From Clostridia bacterium (lineage in GTDB: Bacteria; CBDUZB01; JAGLHV01): a DNA stretch of 48,712 nucleotides. Positions within the stretch are counted from its first letter, which is position 1; each line of letters starts with the position of its first letter. Under the pieces are notes generated by a model. It worked only from the letters and a program-made list of their open reading frames with translations. It ran no database searches and was not told the origin of the DNA. The stretch lies in NCBI GenBank assembly GCA_030637025.1, contig DAOVVV010000021.1, positions 1-48,712 on the forward strand. Direction: 5' to 3'. Shown in pieces: positions 1,431 through 38,327 of the stretch. The translations under genes and the position numbers were made by a program.

Positions 1431-3353
1431 TCAAAAAACAGCTTTAATTCCTCCGTAAAAAGACGCACCGGAAACAGCAAATCCAAAAACTTCCTGATAA
1501 TCTCTATCGAGAAGGTTATTGATTTTTACAAAGACCTCAAGACTTTCAGTTAAATCATAGGTGCTAAAAAGATTAACCAGGGCATAATTTCCCAGAGTGA
1601 TTCGCTCACCGGGATAAGTAGTAAAATCCATATCTTCATATTCGCCTATATAAGATATATTTAAATTAATGTTTCCTTTTTGTAAAAAGAACCAATTAAC
1701 ATTAAGATTACTCTGACTTATCGGACGTCTCAATAATTCTAATTCTGTCTCTTTATCTTCACTCTCTGTGTAAGTATAATTAAGCTTTACTTTTAAACCC
1801 TCCAGGGGTTTAATCCCCATCTTTACTTCTAAGCCCTCTGTCCATGCATTCCCGATATTTTTGTATTCCCATGTATAACTATCCCAATCAATCATATTTT
1901 CAAAGTCATTGTGAAAATAGGTCACCCCTAAAGAAACTTTTTCTTCCAACAACCCCTGTTCCACACCTAAATCATACCCCCTGCTTTCATCCGGTTTTAA
2001 TTCCGTGTTTCCATAATCTGAGTAGAGTTGAAAAAGGGAAGGAGCTTTAAAACCTGTGCCCCAATTTCCTTTGAGTCGGGTATTAACCTGAGAAATAAAA
2101 TAAACAGAGGAAATTTTATAATTTAGCTGTGTTCCGAAAAGTTCATGCTCATCTGCTCTTAAACCCAGGGTAGTAAATAATTTATTACCTATTCTACACT
2201 GATTTTGCAAATAACCGGCAGTATTTTTTATACTTTTTTCGTTAAAATCACTAATATAAGTCCCTGACCGGTAAGAAGAAGAACCCTTTTCTTCTTCCCA
2301 CTCAAAACCAGCGGTTAGTGTATTTATTTTGCTTAATAAAAAATTATTCTGCCATTCTATTTTTTTATTTTCTCCTTTATACCAGCTGGTTTCATCTTCC
2401 ATTATATCTATCATATCTTCCTTGTCGCGATAGTTTCTTTCCATATTTAAAAAGGAAAGGGATAATTTATAATCCCATCGGGAAGAAAGTAATTGCTTGA
2501 ATTCTAATTTAGAAGTTAAGACTTTCCGGTCAGATTTATTGTTAGGGTCATCATTATAGCCTCCATCATCAACATCAATTTTAGCTTCTGTATAACGTAA
2601 ACTTAAATCCAGCTCATTTTTAGCTGATAAATTAAATCCTAAACGCGAAGAAATAGTAGTATTTTCAAAACCATCTTTTTCTAAATCTAAAATCTCACCT
2701 GCTGTTTGGGCTGCTTTAGAAATACCTGCAGAATCCAGCCGTGATAGAGAAAAAGAATAATTCACTTTTTCTGTTCCTCCCCTCACCCCTACAGACTCGC
2801 TAAAAGTATCATCGGTTCCTACTGAACCTGAAACTTCTATCTTTGCTTTTCCCCTTCCTTTTTTAGTAATAATATTAACTATTCCTCCTATAGCATCTGA
2901 ACCATACAGGGTACTTTGAGGTCCCCGGATAACTTCAATTCGTTCAATATTATCTGCAGTCAAACACCCAAGATCAAAAGACCTATCAGTACCCATAGGA
3001 TCATTCACTTCTACCCCGTCAATCATTACTAGGGTATAACCCGGCCTTGAACCCCTCAAATAAATAGAAGCCGTTCCCCCAAATCCGGAACATTGTAAAA
3101 TGCTCAATCCCGGAACATCTCTTAATAATTCCAATACCGTTCCTTTTCCTTTTTGGACAATCTCTTTTTCGGTAATTACTGTCACCCATGCTCCTATTTC
3201 GTCTTTTGCAACGTTTGTTTTAGTTGCACTCAGCACAACATCATCAGCATTATATTCCCCTATTTCTTTTTCTTCCTGCGCCCAACTACCCTGCGATAAA
3301 GTTACAAACAAAATAATTACTGCCACTTCTCGTAAAAACCACTTCATTTTCAT
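1431..3353 (-). CDS. btuB: TonB-dependent receptor, probable vitamin B12 transporter
   Basis: Plug motifs (LLRDVPGL, IERIEVIRGPQSTLYGSDAIGGIVNIIT), terminal Phe; last gene of a cobalamin-riboswitch operon. Start moved to ATG 3353 (RBS AAGGAGG) because the track's first 31 aa are translated repeat DNA. Confidence 0.85.
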   Translation of the reverse strand: MKMKWFLREVAVIILFVTLSQGSWAQEEKEIGEYNADDVVLSATKTNVAKDEIGAWVTVITEKEIVQKGKGTVLELLRDVPGLSILQCSGFGGTASIYLRGSRPGYTLVMIDGVEVNDPMGTDRSFDLGCLTADNIERIEVIRGPQSTLYGSDAIGGIVNIITKKGRGKAKIEVSGSVGTDDTFSESVGVRGGTEKVNYSFSLSRLDSAGISKAAQTAGEILDLEKDGFENTTISSRLGFNLSAKNELDLSLRYTEAKIDVDDGGYNDDPNNKSDRKVLTSKLEFKQLLSSRWDYKLSLSFLNMERNYRDKEDMIDIMEDETSWYKGENKKIEWQNNFLLSKINTLTAGFEWEEEKGSSSYRSGTYISDFNEKSIKNTAGYLQNQCRIGNKLFTTLGLRADEHELFGTQLNYKISSVYFISQVNTRLKGNWGTGFKAPSLFQLYSDYGNTELKPDESRGYDLGVEQGLLEEKVSLGVTYFHNDFENMIDWDSYTWEYKNIGNAWTEGLEVKMGIKPLEGLKVKLNYTYTESEDKETELELLRRPISQSNLNVNWFFLQKGNINLNISYIGEYEDMDFTTYPGERITLGNYALVNLFSTYDLTESLEVFVKINNLLDRDYQEVFGFAVSGASFYGGIKAVF

Positions 3354-3363
3354 TTCCTCCTTA

Positions 3364-3535
3364 TATTTTTTAGTTTGTAGTTGCAAAGCTTGCTTTGCGT
3401 ATAAGTTTTTTTTGTCTTTTTTTTTAACTTTGCTGGAGCGGAGCAAAAGTCCGCCAATCTTTAAGGCGGAGGCATCTGTGCCTTGATGCCTTTGTGCCTG
3501 TCTTTGTCTGTTATCTATGGACTATCGACACGGAC
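3364..3535 (-). repeat. Modular repeat array, locus 1 (heptamer A - octamer C - REP D)
   Basis: Minus strand: GTCGATAGTCCATAG, ACAAAGAC, AGGCACAA/AGGCATCA/AGGCACAG, inserted TCCGCC..GGCGGA hairpin, then 69 bp identical to 4500-4568. Confidence 0.9.
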
Positions 3536-4327
3536 TGTATTTTTTTTCCTTTCTTCTTCAGATACTATTAATATATGCGGTTTTAAAGAAAAGGGATTTT
3601 CTTTAACCACCACTACTGTTTTATATACTTCTTCAATCAAGGAATAGGTCAATACTTCCTTCGGAGTTCCTGTTTTACGAATTATTCCCCGATTAATCAT
3701 TATTAACCGGTCCGAATATTCACTGGCTAAATTAAGATTATGTAAAACCACAATTACCGTACGGCCTAATTCCCGGGTCAATTTCCTTATCAAATCTAAA
3801 ATTGCCACTTGATGAGTAATGTCCAAATGGGCTGTAGGCTCATCCAGCAAAAGCAATTTCGGCTCCTGAGTTAAGGCCCGGGCAATAAATACTAATTGTT
3901 TTTCTCCCTGGCTTATTTGCGTTACCAATTGATTCTTCAACTTAAATGTATCGGTTAATCTCATATATTTTTCAGCAATTTTTTTATCTTTTTGGGTTTC
4001 CATAAACTGTAATTTTGAATAATAAGGAATTCTCCCTAAAAGCACAAATTCTTCCACGGTCATTATCCCTACGCGGCAATCTTGAGAAACAACAGCTACT
4101 TCTCTCGCCAATTCCTTAAAACCCATTTTGTCTATACTCTTATCTCCCAGAATAATTTCACCTTGCTTAAATTTAAGCACTCTGGTTATCGCTTTAAGCA
4201 AGGTAGTTTTTCCCGAACCGTTAGGACCTATTATTCCGATAAACTCTCCTTGTTTTATTTTAAAATTAATCTCTTTAAGAACAACTTTTTCCTTATATCC
4301 ACAAGTTAAATTTTTTATTTCCAGCAT
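3515..4327 (-). CDS. btuD: Cobalamin/iron-chelate ABC transporter ATP-binding protein
   Basis: Walker A GPNGSGKTT, ISQGEKQ signature, LLLLDEPT; operon context. Confidence 0.88.
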   Translation of the reverse strand: MLEIKNLTCGYKEKVVLKEINFKIKQGEFIGIIGPNGSGKTTLLKAITRVLKFKQGEIILGDKSIDKMGFKELAREVAVVSQDCRVGIMTVEEFVLLGRIPYYSKLQFMETQKDKKIAEKYMRLTDTFKLKNQLVTQISQGEKQLVFIARALTQEPKLLLLDEPTAHLDITHQVAILDLIRKLTRELGRTVIVVLHNLNLASEYSDRLIMINRGIIRKTGTPKEVLTYSLIEEVYKTVVVVKENPFSLKPHILIVSEEERKKNTVRVDSP

Positions 4328-4360
4328 TATCTCTCCTTAAAATTAATTAAAAACAAAAAA

Positions 4361-4650
4361 TAGTCCATAGTCCACAGTCGATAGTCCATAGACAACAGAC
4401 ACAGAATAAATACTAAATCCTAATATCTAAATCCTAAACAAATCCAAAATTCAAAACAAAGACTAAAGAGAGGCACAAAGGCATAAAGGCACAGAGGCAC
4501 AAAGTTAAAAAAAAAGACAAAAAAAACTTATACGCAAAGCAAGCTTTGCAACTACAAACTAAAAAATACGGGTAAAATTTCACGTCCGGAGAAAAATATA
4601 TTTTGACTTTATCCCTAGTTCGGGTGAACACAGGGGTTCACCCCTACAAC
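4361..4650 (+). repeat. Modular repeat array, locus 2 (A-B-C-D-E plus a second GTAG-type REP)
   Basis: TAGTCCA-type x4 4361-4388; AAATCCT-type heptamers 4408-4456; AGGCACAA-type x4 4471-4502; GCAAAGCAAGCTTTGCAACTAC 4534-4555; GGGTGAACACAGGGGTTCACCCCTAC 4622-4647. Confidence 0.9.
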
Positions 4651-4660
4651 AACCTTCCGC

Positions 4661-5716
4661 TCACGAATTCCCTAATACAATTTGTTTTTTATTTAACGCA
4701 TAAACAAAAAGAATACCCCCTAATATTCCGGTAATTACTCCTACGGGTAATTCCAGGGGAGAAATAACCGTTCTGGCTATAGTATCGCAAAAAATCAGGA
4801 ATCCGGCCCCGGAAAGAAAAGAACTAATTAAAAGAATTCGATGATCCCCCCCCACGAACATTCGCATAAAATGAGGAACAAGCAATCCAACAAAACCAAT
4901 AACACCGGCAACTGCAACGCTAAAACCCGTAAGCACTGAAGCCAAAACAAAAAGCAGCCGTTTATTTTTTTCCACATTTATACCTAAATGCAGGGCTTCT
5001 TCTTCTCCCAGGGCAAAGGCGTTAAGCACTAAACAAAAAAAATAACTAACTATTAATCCGAAAATAGAAATTACAAGTGATAATTTTACCAGCAAAAAAT
5101 TTGGTGTTTCCAGAGAACCCATTATCCAAAAAATAATTCCGTGCAAATTTTCCGTATGAGAAACAGCCATAATCAGCATAATTAAGGAAGAAGCAATAAA
5201 ACTAACCATCACCCCGGTAAGTAAAAGTGATTGAATTCTTAATCTGCCGTCTTTTATACTCAAACCGTAAACCAGTAAAATCATTCCTGCCGCCCCCAGA
5301 AATCCAAATAAGGGTAAAAAATAAACAGTAATCCGGTTTAATCTAAAAACAATATTCAAACATACCCCTAATGCCGCTCCACCCGAAATACCCAGGGTAT
5401 AAGGCTCAACTAAGGGATTACGAAACATCCCCTGCAGTAGGACACCAGCCAGACTCAACGCTCCCCCAACCGCAAACCCCAGCATAATACGCGGCAGGCG
5501 AATATCGAAAAGAATACTGTATTCAGTCGTTCCTCTTCCTTCAAAAATTAAAGCAATAATTTTTCTAAGAGAAATACCGGTCGAACCAACACAAAGAGAA
5601 AAAATACTTATACTCACAAGGCCTGCACATAAAACAAATATCCAACCAATCCATAGCCATATTTTTTTGTTTATATCATTAGAAAATTTGCTTTTAAAAT
5701 TTTTAATTAAATTCAT
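4661..5716 (-). CDS. btuC: FecCD/BtuC-family ABC permease
   Basis: IRLPR, FRNPLVEPYTLGISGGA, GVIGFVGLLVPH, ELPVGVIT motifs. Confidence 0.9.
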   Translation of the reverse strand: MNLIKNFKSKFSNDINKKIWLWIGWIFVLCAGLVSISIFSLCVGSTGISLRKIIALIFEGRGTTEYSILFDIRLPRIMLGFAVGGALSLAGVLLQGMFRNPLVEPYTLGISGGAALGVCLNIVFRLNRITVYFLPLFGFLGAAGMILLVYGLSIKDGRLRIQSLLLTGVMVSFIASSLIMLIMAVSHTENLHGIIFWIMGSLETPNFLLVKLSLVISIFGLIVSYFFCLVLNAFALGEEEALHLGINVEKNKRLLFVLASVLTGFSVAVAGVIGFVGLLVPHFMRMFVGGDHRILLISSFLSGAGFLIFCDTIARTVISPLELPVGVITGILGGILFVYALNKKQIVLGNS

Positions 5717-5768
5717 TCTGTCTCCCCTTTAACTCCGAGTAATCTCAAATCTGTGTCTCCTTTCCCTA

Positions 5769-5793
5769 CGCAGGCTAAAGCCTGCGGCTACCA
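5769..5793 (-). repeat. GTAG-type REP hairpin
   Basis: Minus strand TGGTAGCCGCAGGCTTTAGCCTGCG; near-identical to 771-795 and 814-838. Confidence 0.85.
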
Positions 5794-5800
5794 GATTCCC

Positions 5801-6664
5801 TCAATTACCATCATTCTGTACTCCCTTTAACTCCGGATGTAGAATTTGTACTATTTCTTTTAGGGCGTCTACAAAACTTAGCGGAGTAGGACTGCAAATA
5901 GCATACGAATCAATAATATAAATTCTATTATTCTTTACTGCGTTTATCGTTTTATATTTCTGCCAAATTCCTTTCTCCTCTTCTCCAATAATTCCCATAG
6001 TTGCAATAATAATTACTTCAGGATTGTCATTAAGCACTTTTTCCCGACTGTAAAACCCTGCTTTTACCCTGCCCGCGACATTTATTCCTCCGGCAAGTTT
6101 TATAAAATCATGCACAAAAGAATCCTTATTTACCGTAAATAAGGGATTTGCTCCTACCTGAATAAAAACTGTCGTTTTTTTTGGAATTTGTTCAACTGTT
6201 TTTTTTATTTTTTTCATTTCATTTCCGGCAACAGTTATAATCTTTTCCGCTTTTTGTTTTCTTCCAACAATTTCCCCTAATTGCAAAAATTGTATACTGA
6301 GCTGGTTAAAATCCTTAGCTAAAGGAAAACGAATTACCTTTATCCCAAGTTTTTCCAACTTTCTAATGTATCTAAGGTTTGTTAAAGGCGTTGCCAGAAC
6401 TAAATCAGGACTAAGGCTTACCACCTTTTCTAAATTAATCTCTATTATCGTTCCCACCTTTTCCTTATTCTTAGCTTCTTCAGGCCTTTTACAAAAAACC
6501 GTGCACCCCACTATCCTATCCTGCACCCCTAATAAATAAAGCTGTTCGGTTATAGACGGTCCCAGTGAAATAATCCTTTGATTTACCCTGCTTAAATCAT
6601 CACCTGCCCTTAAAGGCATACAAAAAACTAAAGTGATCAGATTAAATAATAATATTATTTTCAT
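5801..6664 (-). CDS. btuF: Cobalamin-binding periplasmic protein (helical-backbone receptor)
   Basis: RIISLGPSITEQLYLLG, NLEKVVSLSPDLVL, AVKNNRIY; signal peptide starts at ATG 6664 (start uncertain). Confidence 0.85.
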   Translation of the reverse strand: MKIILLFNLITLVFCMPLRAGDDLSRVNQRIISLGPSITEQLYLLGVQDRIVGCTVFCKRPEEAKNKEKVGTIIEINLEKVVSLSPDLVLATPLTNLRYIRKLEKLGIKVIRFPLAKDFNQLSIQFLQLGEIVGRKQKAEKIITVAGNEMKKIKKTVEQIPKKTTVFIQVGANPLFTVNKDSFVHDFIKLAGGINVAGRVKAGFYSREKVLNDNPEVIIIATMGIIGEEEKGIWQKYKTINAVKNNRIYIIDSYAICSPTPLSFVDALKEIVQILHPELKGVQNDGN

Positions 6665-6715
6665 TTTTTTAGTAAAATAAATAATTTTCTTCCTCCGAGA
6701 TAAAAGCAAAAAAAT

Positions 6716-6954
6716 AAATACTAAACCCTAATATCTAAATCCTTCTTACTGACTGGCGGACAGGCAAATTCAAAATCTGAAATACTAAATTCAAAACAAA
6801 GACTAAAGACATGCATCAAGGCACAGAGGCACAAAGTAAAAAAAAGACAAAGACAAAAAAAACTTATAAGCAAAGCAAGCTTTGCAACTATAAACTAAAA
6901 AATAAAGGTAAAATGTGTTTCGAACGATATAGCAAATTTTAGCAAAAATTAGCG
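6716..6954 (+). repeat. Modular repeat array, locus 3 (B-C-D-G) in the riboswitch leader
   Basis: AAATACT/AAACCCT/AATATCT/AAATCCT heptamers, AAAGACTAAAGAC linker, GGCACA octamers, REP D 6863-6895, module G 6905-6954 (44/50 identical to 38273-38322). Confidence 0.9.
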
Positions 6955-7028
6955 TAAAAAAAACGATAAAAATTCGGAGTCTTCTAAGAAAGGAATATAG
7001 AAAAGTAAAATCTACAACAGGCTAAAAT

Positions 7029-14876: not shown

Positions 14877-15034
14877 AATTTTCGTATCCTTTTAATCTTG
14901 TTTTTTACTTAATTAGTTATTGTAACATAAAATAATAAAAAATAAAAGGTAAGTGGTAAAATTACGTCTTTAGAGAAAAACATATTTTGCTTTTATTAAA
15001 CAATACTTTTAGAATCAATTACCCCTCATGCCTG

Positions 15035-15145
15035 CTGCGGGAATTAAACACTAGACCCTGAGACTCCCTACAAGAGAGTCTCAGGATCAATTCGACTACA
15101 GAGTTTTTTTTCAGCGTAGCTGACAAAAACTCTAAGTCTCATTGA
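15035..15145 (+). repeat. About 110-bp composite hairpin repeat, copy 1
   Basis: Shared with 28924-29030 (CTCAGGATCAATTCGACTACAGA...GCTGACAAAAACTCTAAGTCTCATTGA). Confidence 0.85.
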
Positions 15146-15147
15146 AC

Positions 15148-16365
15148 TTAAAAACTATATTTAAATTTTGCTTCAAAAAAATCATTATTTTTAAATTTGC
15201 TTAAGTTGTCTTCCCCCTCTCCTGTAAAAACGCCCACGGATAAATCGGCCCACAGATTTTCCCACCAAGTAATACTAAATGTTCCTTTTAAAAAACAGCT
15301 GTCATTTATTAAATTATACATAGAAAAAAGTTTTACTATTTTTTTTTCATAAGAAAATTTTCTTTCTATATTCGCCATCAGGGTTATTTCCTCTTTCCTT
15401 TCTCCTATCGACTCTTCAATTAATATTTTTTTATACAGCAAATTAAAATTCAGATAATTATCCCCCAATGTCCTATCCAGTCCCAGCCCTCCGGTAAAAG
15501 AATTTCCTTTATGGTAATTTAAGTAAACCTTATCCTGAAAACCAACCCCGGTAAATAAAACCCCTTCTCCTCTTATCCCCCACTTTCCCCAAACCAATTC
15601 AAAATCATACCCAAACATATCATTTCGGAAATAAACCGCGTTAATTTTATTTAAATCAATATCTAAACAATAAGAGGGAAAATCGCCAAACCCTCTAAAA
15701 TAATACAAAGACCAATCAATTTCCTTAAAAACACCGGAGAATCTACTGCCATATTCCATATTTTTTATGTTTTCCGAGGGTAAATATTTTTCCACCGGCA
15801 ATGGAAAGAAGACAGGATCAAACGGTGAATTTTTTTCCTTCACCTCATCATAAGTGCCCTTTTTAAAAAAAGGGACTAATATAAAATCAAGCCGACATTC
15901 TCTCCCCCAATGAGGAGAGAACATTAACAAAGGAACGGATAATTTTGCTTCTTTTCTTTCTCCTTCTAAAAAAAGCTTACTAACATCTAATGGATTTACC
16001 ATATCTACCGGGGATATATAATCCAATTTTCCCCAAAAAACTTTGGAATAACCTATTTTAACATCCATTGCCGGAAAATAAAAATTCAAACTAATATCAT
16101 TTAGCTTCGGGAAAACTTCATTGTTATCTTCTTTTTTATTTGAGAAAACCCCCTCTATGGAACAACTTTGGTAAGAAACAAACCATGGTTTAAAATCCAC
16201 TCTATTTTCTAATAAGAAACTGCTCCTTATTTCAAATAATTCCTCTCTATCCGGATAAAAAAGGCCTCTTGTTTGAAAATTTCCGTCAAAGGAAAAAGCA
16301 AAAGAATTAAAGAGTAATACAAACCACAAGAATAGTGTCGATAATTTAATTTCTTTTATCTTCAT
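15148..16365 (-). CDS. Putative outer-membrane beta-barrel protein
   Basis: Signal peptide, GYSKVFWGKLD..VDMVNP, amphipathic strands, terminal KFKYSF. Confidence 0.7.
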   Translation of the reverse strand: MKIKEIKLSTLFLWFVLLFNSFAFSFDGNFQTRGLFYPDREELFEIRSSFLLENRVDFKPWFVSYQSCSIEGVFSNKKEDNNEVFPKLNDISLNFYFPAMDVKIGYSKVFWGKLDYISPVDMVNPLDVSKLFLEGERKEAKLSVPLLMFSPHWGRECRLDFILVPFFKKGTYDEVKEKNSPFDPVFFPLPVEKYLPSENIKNMEYGSRFSGVFKEIDWSLYYFRGFGDFPSYCLDIDLNKINAVYFRNDMFGYDFELVWGKWGIRGEGVLFTGVGFQDKVYLNYHKGNSFTGGLGLDRTLGDNYLNFNLLYKKILIEESIGERKEEITLMANIERKFSYEKKIVKLFSMYNLINDSCFLKGTFSITWWENLWADLSVGVFTGEGEDNLSKFKNNDFFEAKFKYSF

Positions 16366-38196: not shown

Positions 38197-38322
38197 AAAG
38201 ACAGTTAAAAGACAGTTGAATTGGTTTAGATTAGTTTAGATTGGTTAAAGACAAAGACAAAAACAAATAATGAAGGTGAAATGTGTTTTGAACGACTTAG
38301 CAAATTTTAGCAATAATAAGCG
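38197..38322 (+). repeat. Modular repeat array, locus 4 (decamer H - module G)
   Basis: AAAGAC linkers at 38197, 38208, 38247, 38253; TTGGTTTAGA/TTAGTTTAGA/TTGGTT; module G shared with 6905-6954. Confidence 0.75.
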
Positions 38323-38327
38323 TTAAA

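Follow-up and report, generated by a model that had tools for sequence, protein, structure and literature searches.

The BIMEs of E. coli are a familiar example of composite repeats that lie between genes and combine optional modules in a constant order. According to the papers cited here and below, 23S rRNA intervening sequences (IVSs) encoding S23p in Coxiella burnetii and Leptospira have complementary termini that form a stem round the ORF, and are regarded as selfish; in Coxiella the S23p ORF is preceded by tandem heptameric repeats that differ in number among strains, and the IVS stem is cleaved by RNase III (PMC4990558). Intergenic 7-base units, as a rule in 2-6 copies, were described as STRR in heterocystous cyanobacteria (PMC2670836) and as TAACTGA repeats in Beggiatoaceae, Cyanobacteria and Bacteroidetes (PMC4679880). 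Several unit families occur per genome, sometimes mixed in one spacer, the corresponding spacers of relatives are shorter and repeat-free, and the origin of the repeats is given as unknown, "no mechanism is evident" (PMC2670836, PMC4679880). A regulatory role was proposed for the Beggiatoaceae TAACTGA and the Nostoc heptamer repeats (PMC4679880, bioRxiv 10.1101/2022.06.06.494920). The available text of PMC4679880 has no occurrence of S23, four helix or intervening sequence, and the excerpts of the STRR and TAACTGA papers hold no link to four-helix-bundle genes. BOX, boxA-(boxB)n-boxC, has terminal inverted repeats, target duplications and a tight fold (PMC3049150).

Exploring a 48,712-nucleotide stretch of an uncultured cold-seep bacterium assigned to the Clostridia (the window), we found that the intergenic spacers of an uptake operon hold short conserved repeat words in constant order.

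Repeat loci of a transport operon

The structure of the loci was established by sequence reading and Tandem Repeats Finder, which agree with the first-pass annotation that four loci, all falling between ORFs in the ORF list, are built of named modules in a stated order. Loci 1-3 sit in spacers of a minus-strand TonB-receptor, ABC ATPase, permease and binding-protein operon. Its first gene, encoding a periplasmic binding protein (5801..6664, minus; Pfam Peripla_BP_2), is separated by a REP-type hairpin (5745..5800, unstranded; from sequence reading, with the same hairpin type in sister species G001) from a permease-like ORF (4661..5716, minus; ORF list) that has 480 relatives in other genomes by tblastn. 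The ABC transporter ATPase gene (3515..4327, minus; Pfam ABC_tran) lies between loci 1 and 2, whose arrays are inverted relative to each other, and the TonB-dependent receptor gene (1431..3350, minus; Pfam Plug and TonB_dep_Rec_b-barrel, ORF list) is the operon's last.

Locus 1 (3364-3535, minus), immediately upstream of the receptor start in the ORF list, reads A-C-D. Its module D (3364..3432, minus), a REP-type hairpin with A-rich flanks, matches the inverted D of locus 2 at 100% identity across 69 nt; an R hairpin element (approximate limits 3427..3478, minus; sequence reading) is nested in the last C unit, a C-unit/R junction found again at C31, C8 and C4; and modules C and A with their linkers occupy 3472..3535 (minus), the locus being called genome-wide as cluster C42:3366-3529, minus, ACD. 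Locus 2 (4361-4612, plus) comprises, all on the plus strand, module A, a heptamer word in its canonical 4-unit form (4361..4394), module B, an AT-rich heptamer word (4407..4460), module C, an octamer word (4471..4505), module D, an A-rich linker and REP-type hairpin with its stem at ~4534-4549 (4506..4566), and module E (4568..4612), a mini-hairpin that each of the four species has at this orthologous position. An extra REP-like hairpin adjoins the permease stop codon (4613..4655, plus) and is present whole in G001 and by half in G003. Locus 3 (6713-6960, plus) is composed of B-C-linker-D-G, with B split by an R-like hairpin at ~6743-6770; its cluster reads BCLDG, and its positions 6780-6914 match locus 2 at 85%. 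Locus 4 (38197-38325, plus), called WLG in the genome-wide module search, carries X (11-mer), W (10-mer), the hexamer linker and G. A lone E-like block (14955..14994, plus) opens a ~200-bp run of hairpin elements that is absent from the same site in G001 and G003.

E and G, which had been taken for alternatives, belong together as the ends of a single 168-bp hairpin element, E the right one and G the left one; locus 2 holds the right end solo and locus 3 the left end solo. The element has 44 near-full copies among 107 matches (median identity 90.5%) and a fold z of -6.5, with 0/200 shuffles as stable; with <300 bp, inverted ends, a long hairpin and many copies it resembles a MITE. Six pairs of its ends lie far apart (450-4000 bp), and the ORFs scanned between four of these pairs encode a lipoate ligase, an aconitase fragment, an ACT-domain protein, a deformylase and one protein with no family match, with no transposase among them. 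The genome carries three Y1_Tnp genes and, at contig ends, an IS4-like transposase. Relatives of the module D hairpin, with its flanks conserved but other stems, occur at C53, at C74 and in G001. Elements are nested in one another, R within both A and C words, REP within G and an inverted A within the G-E element. "Stacked ends of nested non-autonomous elements", one suggestion of the first-pass annotation, comes close to our best reading.

Predicted RNA folding, by both the MFE and the centroid structure, pairs the arrays of loci 1 and 2 across the ATPase gene. Locus 2 alone is unstructured (z -0.46; 67/200 shuffles fold as well), the D hairpin being the sole stable hairpin within its array. 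An inverted partner is lacking for loci 3 and 4 and for most clusters genome-wide: among 92 neighbouring cluster pairs at <=4 kb, 34 are in inverted orientation, of which only 8 have a module in common.

Word order and turnover among related genomes

The shared grammar claimed for the window holds genome-wide. We counted 330 copies of the modules, grouped into 194 clusters, and they extend well beyond the window loci. Of the clusters, 180 are intergenic, while crude ORF calls put the coding share of the genome at ~88%. Neighbouring modules lie on the same strand in 128/136 pairs, and their order is collinear and non-random, with 107 concordant and 13 discordant ordered pairs, a value reached by 0/2000 within-cluster shuffles; the order derived from the window is upheld outside it (46 vs 4 pairs), and the same grammar is present in all three sister species. 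Intergenic arrays with a period of 6-11 number 121, 72 of them with period 7, as against 1, 2 and 0 in three mononucleotide shuffles of the intergenic regions, which preserve base composition only. The pattern is far beyond what chance gives.

The modules had been read as plain tandem repeats; they are fixed words of ~31-34 nt with a constant succession of unit variants and exact copies in sister species. Exact copies number 19 for the C 33-mer and 29 for the A 31-mer; at <=2 substitutions there are 28 and 47, respectively. The A word is identical at 34/34 positions in G001 and G002 and at 31/31 in G003, and the C word at 38/38 in G002, while identity between the flanking genes is no higher than 82-93%. 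Words are copied rather than generated in place. There are several word families (A, B, C, V, W and X), and the linker L is an A-rich hexamer. The reading of the arrays as cassette arms, set out below, can account for the constant order solely through descent from composite arms, but the genome-wide module clusters include no full-length master arm with all modules, and neither an enzyme to copy the words nor a reverse transcriptase was identified.

In the same operon spacers, module content differs in all four species. As the first-pass annotation had proposed, whole modules are gained or lost at the linkers: differences at orthologous sites are whole module blocks with breakpoints in A-rich linkers, and they include inversions as well as changes in the array interior and at each of its ends. 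G001 carries, at site 38197, ~310 further bp of modules running from the linker to G, and the G003 array lies in the opposite orientation. Empty sites were also found on comparing orthologous operons; the permease and ATPase genes abut in the more distant lineages L044 and L047, and in one cold-seep metagenome contig 3350 is followed directly by 3540, the locus-1 array being absent. Array turnover is fast.

Orientation was counted from the calls of a crude ORF caller. Orphan copies of X (17:0) and W (10:1) run sense to the genes that flank them, the same as in the upstream arm of a cassette, and orphan B is antisense (14:1), the same as in the downstream arm; module G is antisense as well (36:1). 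Most clusters with two flanking ORFs (136/151) lie between co-directional genes. Adjacent ORFs of this genome are co-directional in 91% of pairs, and the strand of a gene agrees with the sign of GC skew for 1611/1741 ORFs, so the orientation bias could reflect replication instead of transcription.

PF05635 genes and the origin of the arrays

According to the first-pass annotation, heptamer and octamer tracts flank four-helix-bundle genes, and this holds. Counting an array of period 6-11 within 150 bp of the PF05635 domain, we found that 13/13 PF05635 (S23p/Avd-like) genes of this genus and one Nitrospirota genome have adjoining arrays, as do 17/21 in a diverse sample from 14 other genomes, the remaining 4/21 having no array within that distance. 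Array density beside these genes was 5.98 per kb in the 13-gene set and 3.81 in the 21-gene set, as compared with 0.40 and 0.39, respectively, >500 bp away in the same loci; the background in this genome (G000) is an array nearby for 316/1932 ORFs. PF05635 genes with arrays on both sides often have inverted arms. In high-GC genomes, in which chance arrays are rare, the genes still have arrays, and when these occur on both sides, their units are often in inverted orientation and particular to that gene copy.

Modules of the window themselves flank 3/8 PF05635 genes of the genus (A, B, W, X and L, by BLAST): the gene at C7:20595-20912 in G000 has A, linker and B downstream, that at G001:C179 has W, linker and X upstream, and that at G003:C330 has B on either side. 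C and V words stand beside none of the eight, and the remaining 5/8 have other units. Module B further matches Nitrospirota arrays at 84-92% identity, and the single such array whose surroundings were examined (G044:C20) adjoins a PF05635 gene; the G003 and Nitrospirota PF05635 proteins whose genes have B-like arms share 59% identity as reciprocal best hits. The similarity of arm units tracks protein relatedness (0.592 vs 0.507, reached by 7/5000 shuffles, in a comparison whose kin are not independent). A Nitrospirota cassette with octamer arms occupies the equivalent slot, exactly between permease and ATPase genes, and its predicted fold pairs the arms (z -2.79). A PF05635 gene could also prefer to land in pre-existing arrays, in which case causation would be reversed.

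As the first-pass annotation stated, the window holds no four-helix-bundle gene (no PF05635 match), and the genome has only two, both on contig C7; if the loci belong with such cassettes, it can only be as derivatives that lack the gene. Our best reading, to which we give about an even chance, is that they are stacked gene-less arms of small, selfish IVS-like PF05635 cassettes, with other small hairpin repeats set among them. The complete form of a cassette is a PF05635 gene (S23p / 23S-rRNA-IVS protein, Avd-like), co-directional in its operon, between two short-unit arrays that, when both are present, are often mutually complementary, a build like that of ORF-bearing 23S rRNA intervening sequences. 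The arms of this genus would be composites of words A, B, C, V, W and X joined by A-rich hexamer linkers, and they far outnumber the genes (~190 clusters vs 2). Words would be copied blockwise into new intergenic slots, and recombination or slippage between the repeated linkers would remove or exchange blocks while leaving the relative word order intact; the words may in turn have served as landing sites for the REP hairpin D, hairpins R and T, and G-E. The inverted stacks flanking the ATPase gene are predicted to give a long double-stranded transcript stem, of the type cut by RNase III in rRNA IVSs. Descent of the array stacks from such arms, if true, would tie long-unexplained bacterial 7-base repeats to a protein family of unknown function.

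Orphan arrays exceed PF05635 genes by ~100 to 1, and this excess also suits composite non-autonomous repeats of the BOX or BIME kind, spread by a transposase or recombination and causally unrelated to the four-helix-bundle genes, which would merely insert or survive in repeat-rich spacers. The modular build with optional modules in constant order, as in pneumococcal BOX A-Bn-C (PMC3049150), points the same way, as do the REP-type hairpin D and MITE-like G-E hairpin in the same stacks and the Y1 and IS4-like transposase genes of the genome. We nevertheless consider this explanation unlikely, if a serious one: the words are unfolded and have no terminal inverted repeats, the ORFs scanned between separated element ends include no transposase, PF05635 genes of high-GC genomes keep arrays with often inverted, copy-specific units, arm units follow protein relatedness, and the B word adjoins related PF05635 genes in two phyla. 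We think it rather improbable that the words are host cis-elements in operons, that is, unstructured A- or U-rich RNA (or DNA) protein sites tuning how the polycistronic transcript is translated, processed or stabilised. Their exact conservation between species, the strong module-specific orientation of G, X and B, the preference for co-directional neighbours, and the regulatory effects reported or proposed for heptamer repeats (PMC4679880, bioRxiv 10.1101/2022.06.06.494920) would fit such sites, and A and C words are present in contigs of one RNA library, in which DNA carry-over is possible. Orthologous spacers, on the other hand, differ in all four species, one array is inverted and some sites are empty in sisters or strains; module content, orientation and occupancy thus vary at orthologous sites, which argues that no site-specific function is conserved, and the orientation bias could be replicative.

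Ordinary microsatellites, arisen by replication slippage in place and having composition bias but not descent in common, are very improbable. Unit numbers do vary somewhat (1-unit and 6-unit C forms, 1- to 6-unit A forms) and one linker array reaches 14.5 copies, but the succession of unit variants is identical in dozens of copies and all four species, module order is collinear across loci, and shuffles yield only 0-2 arrays vs 121. The first-pass annotation had also offered a polarised array that adds modules at the hexamer linker; such an array would be a record of events in the way of CRISPR or an integron. The linker breakpoints of interspecies blocks would agree with it; we find it hardly credible, as differences are not confined to one growing end, a small module repertoire with no unique spacers is common to all loci, and the ORFs scanned beside the window arrays include no integrase or cas-like gene.

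Comparison with described repeat systems

The loci were rightly held not to be CRISPR: a small common module repertoire takes the place of a constant repeat alternating with unique spacers. BOX resembles the stacks in its optional modules and constant order, in strain size variation by module gain and loss and in clustering with other small repeats; it differs from the A-B-C stack, which is unfolded and at which no target duplication was seen. Likeness to REP/REPIN-RAYT systems and MITEs (PMC3116915) lies in the REP-type hairpin D, the long G-E hairpin with inverted ends and the nesting of small elements; unlike for MITEs, a cognate transposase for G-E was not found among the ORFs scanned between its separated ends.

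The window arrays are tandem 7-9-base units of the sort found beside PF05635 genes, and the cassettes described here share their protein family (PF05635 / TIGR02436) with the S23p IVSs. Those IVSs lie in rRNA, whereas the cassettes lie in protein-coding operons; the window has arms without a gene, these arms combine several words, one arm pair encloses a host gene, and RNase III cutting is here a prediction.

The first-pass term "undescribed system" was only partly right, since heptamer arrays are already in print as STRR, TAACTGA and S23p-IVS repeats (PMC2670836, PMC4679880 and PMC4990558). As with STRR and TAACTGA repeats, period 7 prevails among the intergenic arrays (72/121) and the genome holds several families. 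The units, however, differ from the title unit of PMC4679880, the host is a Clostridia bacterium and not a heterocystous cyanobacterium, and the arrays show no bias to positions directly upstream of start codons. The words of this genus are further set apart from both by a constant order of variants inside each word and a constant order among the words.

Composition, order and orientation of the modules

Exploring the spacers of contig C42 (the window; one of 77 contigs of a 2.36-Mb genome of 33.5% G+C, here G000), we located the three main loci between the genes of an operon on the minus strand encoding a periplasmic binding protein (5801-6664), a permease-like ORF (4661-5716), an ABC ATPase (3515-4327) and a TonB-dependent receptor (1431-3350). 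Sequence reading combined with Tandem Repeats Finder bore out the modules and the fixed order described in the first-pass annotation, i.e. A-C-D at 3364-3535 on the minus strand (locus 1), A-B-C-D-E at 4361-4612 (locus 2), B-C-linker-D-G at 6713-6960 and an 11-mer array (X), a 10-mer array (W), a linker and G at 38197-38325, with a lone E-like block at 14955-14994. Hairpin elements are nested within the modules at about 3427-3478 (in C) and 6743-6770 (in B). Searching the window with Rfam returned two tRNAs only, the arrays and the G-E element being unmatched, and the spacers of the sister species G001 gave no Rfam match up to E = 1.

Ten modules cut from G000 by coordinates and searched genome-wide with blastn-short yielded 330 copies in 194 clusters, 72 of which carried at least two modules. 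Adjacent modules were on the same strand in 128 of 136 pairs, and the order A<V<B<C<D<G<E (V being a further repeat word) was followed by 107 ordered pairs as against 13, a level reached by none of 2000 within-cluster shuffles. The order derived from the window (A<B<C<D<G) held outside C42 in 46 pairs against 4, while the position of X and W was less fixed (181 versus 34 pairs once both were counted in). Clusters were intergenic in 180 of 194 cases, in a genome about 88% covered by ORFs according to crude ORF calls. Arrays of period 6-11 in real intergenic DNA numbered 121, including 72 heptamers, compared with 1, 2 and 0 in three shuffles. For the canonical A 31-mer there were 29 exact copies, and 47 when up to two substitutions were allowed; for the canonical C 33-mer these counts were 19 and 28, and the order of unit variants was constant among A copies and among C copies. 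These modules are words rather than free microsatellites.

A single 168-bp element, with a terminator-like hairpin at its centre, has G as its left end and E as its right; BLAST gave 107 matches to it, 44 of them near full length, with a median identity of 90.5%. The element was predicted to fold into one long hairpin (-30.7 kcal/mol, z -6.5; none of 200 shuffles was as stable), and in variants the central hairpin was replaced by a REP or an inverted A word. The G end (6905-6960 and 38270-38325 in the window; genome-wide about 66 copies) opens with a Shine-Dalgarno-like motif and a mini-ORF of nine codons, of which codons six and eight differ among copies. The G-E element was also seen in head-to-tail arrays, repeating about every 180-187 bp, at C35:46800-47260, C64:1-340, C73:11890-12340 and C57:1-250, often at contig ends. 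Left and right ends lay 450-4000 bp apart in six pairs; scanning the ORFs of four of these pairs detected no transposase, the ORFs being housekeeping genes or without a family match. A DDE transposase that we take from its sequence motifs to be IS4-like is found at C60:1-574 and at the ends of C71, C40 and C75, its presence at four contig ends indicating a multi-copy element that breaks the assembly. An autonomous partner for G-E was rejected: the ORFs scanned between separated ends were not transposases, and the end of the IS4-like element does not match the G-E ends. The D module is a hairpin of REP type, conserved in its flanks and variable in its stem.

Overall, clusters were nearly balanced relative to co-directional flanking ORFs (72 sense, 64 antisense), a balance that masks strong module-specific biases. 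G (36 antisense, 1 sense), E (19 and 4) and B (14 and 1) were predominantly antisense, whereas X (0 antisense, 17 sense), W (1 and 10), A (16 and 38) and C (7 and 23) were predominantly sense. Clusters with G or E ran against the local GC skew, i.e. against gene direction, in 74 cases versus 9, and clusters of tandem-repeat modules only ran with it in 83 versus 27. Neighbouring ORFs of G000 run in the same direction in 1683 of 1855 pairs, the strand of an ORF agrees with the sign of the skew in 1611 of 1741 cases (contig GC skews being 0.2-0.3 in size), and only one cluster lies between genes running against the skew; with a strand bias this extreme, replication and transcription are not separable as the cause of orientation.

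Turnover among sister species and the enclosed ATPase gene

Comparison with three sister species of the genus (G001, G002 and G003) revealed identical words in species whose genes differ by 7-18%. The A word was identical at 34/34 in G001 and G002 and 31/31 in G003, and the C word at 38/38 in G002 and 31/31 in G001, while orthologous operon genes shared 82-93% DNA identity across the four species. Many module copies were present in all four genomes of the group at phylum rank; in a sample of 37 genomes from the rest of the domain, short matches occurred in only four, nearly all to the B part.

The spacers around the ATPase gene carry stacks in all four species, with different content. Those of G003 are without C-D and have a hairpin element, R, inside A; those of G001 contain a full G-E element and other hairpins; and those of G002 carry a large unrelated insert, as well as a G-E element holding an inverted A. 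At the site corresponding to 38197, linker and G are separated in G001 by about 310 additional bases of modules, the array of G003 is in the opposite orientation and G002 shows yet another arrangement. G001 and G003 lack the run of about 200 bp at 14948-15149, which consists of the E-like block plus three other small hairpins, and have 28-30 unrelated bases in its place; the permease and ATPase genes abut in more distant lineages (L044, L047). In the cold-seep metagenome X1, positions 3350 and 3540 are joined through 30 other letters on a contig of depth 9, which represents a strain or relative living alongside that lacks the locus 1 array between the receptor start and the ATPase stop. Word depth in this run was 700-1800 for the arrays versus about 23 for genes. 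Two other runs (X5 and X6) contained only short pieces of relatives, and an RNA library (X18), which carries no information on transcription, strand or RNA ends, gave 9 contigs, in two of which A or C words adjoin other flanks. In the region matching C7:18000-27000 the G001 assembly is too broken up at the repeats for a synteny comparison.

Loci 1 and 2 carry mutually inverted stacks, with mirrored module order around the ATPase gene, their D hairpins being 100% identical over 69 nt in inverted orientation. In the predicted fold of a 1216-nt transcript the two stacks pair in both the MFE and the centroid structure, B forming a side hairpin, and the ATPase-flanking stacks are inverted in all four species. 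Diverging pairs of stacks that share modules occur only twice in G000, around this gene and at C7:42728/43964, and arms around host genes were therefore rejected as a general rule. Two further gene-associated patterns were noted. An A- or C-led stack directly follows each member of a repeat-rich, secreted-looking protein family with a common C-terminal tail (C60:662-2239 and ORFs on C11, C12, C24 and C28). At L089:1650-1690, L052:1705-1745 and L109:1650-1690, in genomes labelled Omnitrophota or Nitrospirota, the same operon's binding-protein gene seems to start within a B-like heptamer array, and this array would encode a lysine-rich N-terminus.

Arrays beside PF05635 genes

The two G000 genes of the four-helix-bundle family PF05635 (S23p) are both carried by contig C7. 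Downstream of one lies A-linker-B; the other (C7:11600-12260) is flanked by a different repeat of 10-11-base units, also seen on C74 and C66 and in G002. Searching with the permease identified a Nitrospirota genome in which a TIGR02436/PF05635 gene, flanked on either side by octamer arrays, occupies precisely the slot between permease and ATPase genes. A second PF05635 gene of this genome, with B-like heptamers, lies between fabZ and fabF, and the genome has seven B-like matches at 84-92% identity.

Taking every PF05635 match returned and scoring arrays of period 6-11 up to 150 bp from the domain, we found arrays beside 13 of 13 genes in the genus and the Nitrospirota genome (on both sides in 9) and beside 17 of 21 genes in 14 other genomes of 34-64% G+C (both sides in 7). 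Array density near the domain was 5.98 and 3.81 per kb, and beyond 500 bp at the same loci it was 0.40 and 0.39 per kb; among all ORFs of G000, 316 of 1932 had such an array nearby. Units of two-sided arrays were often mutual reverse complements and specific to the gene copy, and in the fold predicted for the Nitrospirota cassette the arms were paired (z -2.79; none of 100 shuffles as stable). PF05635 genes were co-directional with both neighbours in 22 of 34 cases.

The window's own modules were detected by BLAST within about 110 bp of three of the eight PF05635 genes of the genus, as A, linker and B downstream in antisense, as W, linker and X upstream in sense, and as B on both sides; these orientations match the preferences of the gene-less copies. 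The proteins with B-like arms from the genus and from Nitrospirota are reciprocal best hits at 59% identity. Similarity of arm units was 0.592 for best protein hits compared with 0.507 for all pairs, a value reached by 7 of 5000 label shuffles, although this covariation is only indicative since the kin are not independent. One gene of G003 (C215:1413-1730) contains an in-frame TAA and is probably decaying; similar decay is reported for the S23p ORF of Coxiella (PMC4990558).

Origin of the stacks and comparison with known repeats

We read the loci as arms of IVS-like PF05635 cassettes, stacked and lacking the gene, with REP-type and other hairpin repeats mixed in. Collinearity would come from descent from composite arms. 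Real cassette arms in the genus are mosaics with the same linkers, and if whole blocks were lost or exchanged at these reiterated linkers, the module order would be kept. Slippage, which would make each array a local product, is contradicted by the collinear order, the constant order of unit variants, the identity of words across species and the shuffles. The polarised, module-acquiring array proposed in the first-pass annotation did not survive the cross-species comparison of stacks at the operon spacers and at site 38197. An origin by a reverse transcriptase or a telomerase-like enzyme was rejected as well, RVT_1 having no match in G000 (97.8% complete) and the copies being without a common 3' end. 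Two rivals of the cassette-arm reading are a BOX/BIME-like repeat family unrelated to PF05635 and host cis-elements.

A further reading, which we consider unlikely, is that each word is the address of one PF05635 protein lineage recognising its own unit in RNA or DNA, that the hundreds of orphan stacks across the genome are both protein-addressable sites and a layered record of one cassette invasion after another, and that some inverted stacks, such as those around the ATPase gene, were co-opted for excision of a host gene from its operon transcript by RNase III. If true, it would explain heptamer repeats (STRR, TAACTGA and the like) in many phyla.

Intergenic tandem 7-base repeats of bacteria go back decades in the literature, as STRR and later as the TAACTGA repeats, with no origin or function that we know of. 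The S23p/PF05635 family is widespread, again with no role that we know of outside diversity-generating retroelements. In this genus the two meet in extreme form, with about 190 gene-less stacks versus two genes, and one word adjoins related PF05635 genes in two phyla. For annotation, it is relevant that assemblies break at such arrays and that operon remodelling has its hot spots there. Literature searches, covering main texts from outside the subscription journals, found no link between PF05635 genes in general and heptamer arrays, and no paper that treats the four-helix bundle together with GxxExxY; among the papers listed for names of the protein family, none carried such a name in its title or abstract. 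PMC4679880 and PMC2670836 present heptamer arrays without a mechanism, and the former nowhere mentions S23, four helix or intervening sequence. Regulatory effects are described for heptamer repeats of Nostoc (bioRxiv 10.1101/2022.06.06.494920), BOX elements are modular (PMC3049150) and REPINs form a further known class (PMC3116915), while the IVS of Coxiella combines an S23p ORF with tandem heptameric repeats of variable number and is cut by RNase III in its stem (PMC4990558).
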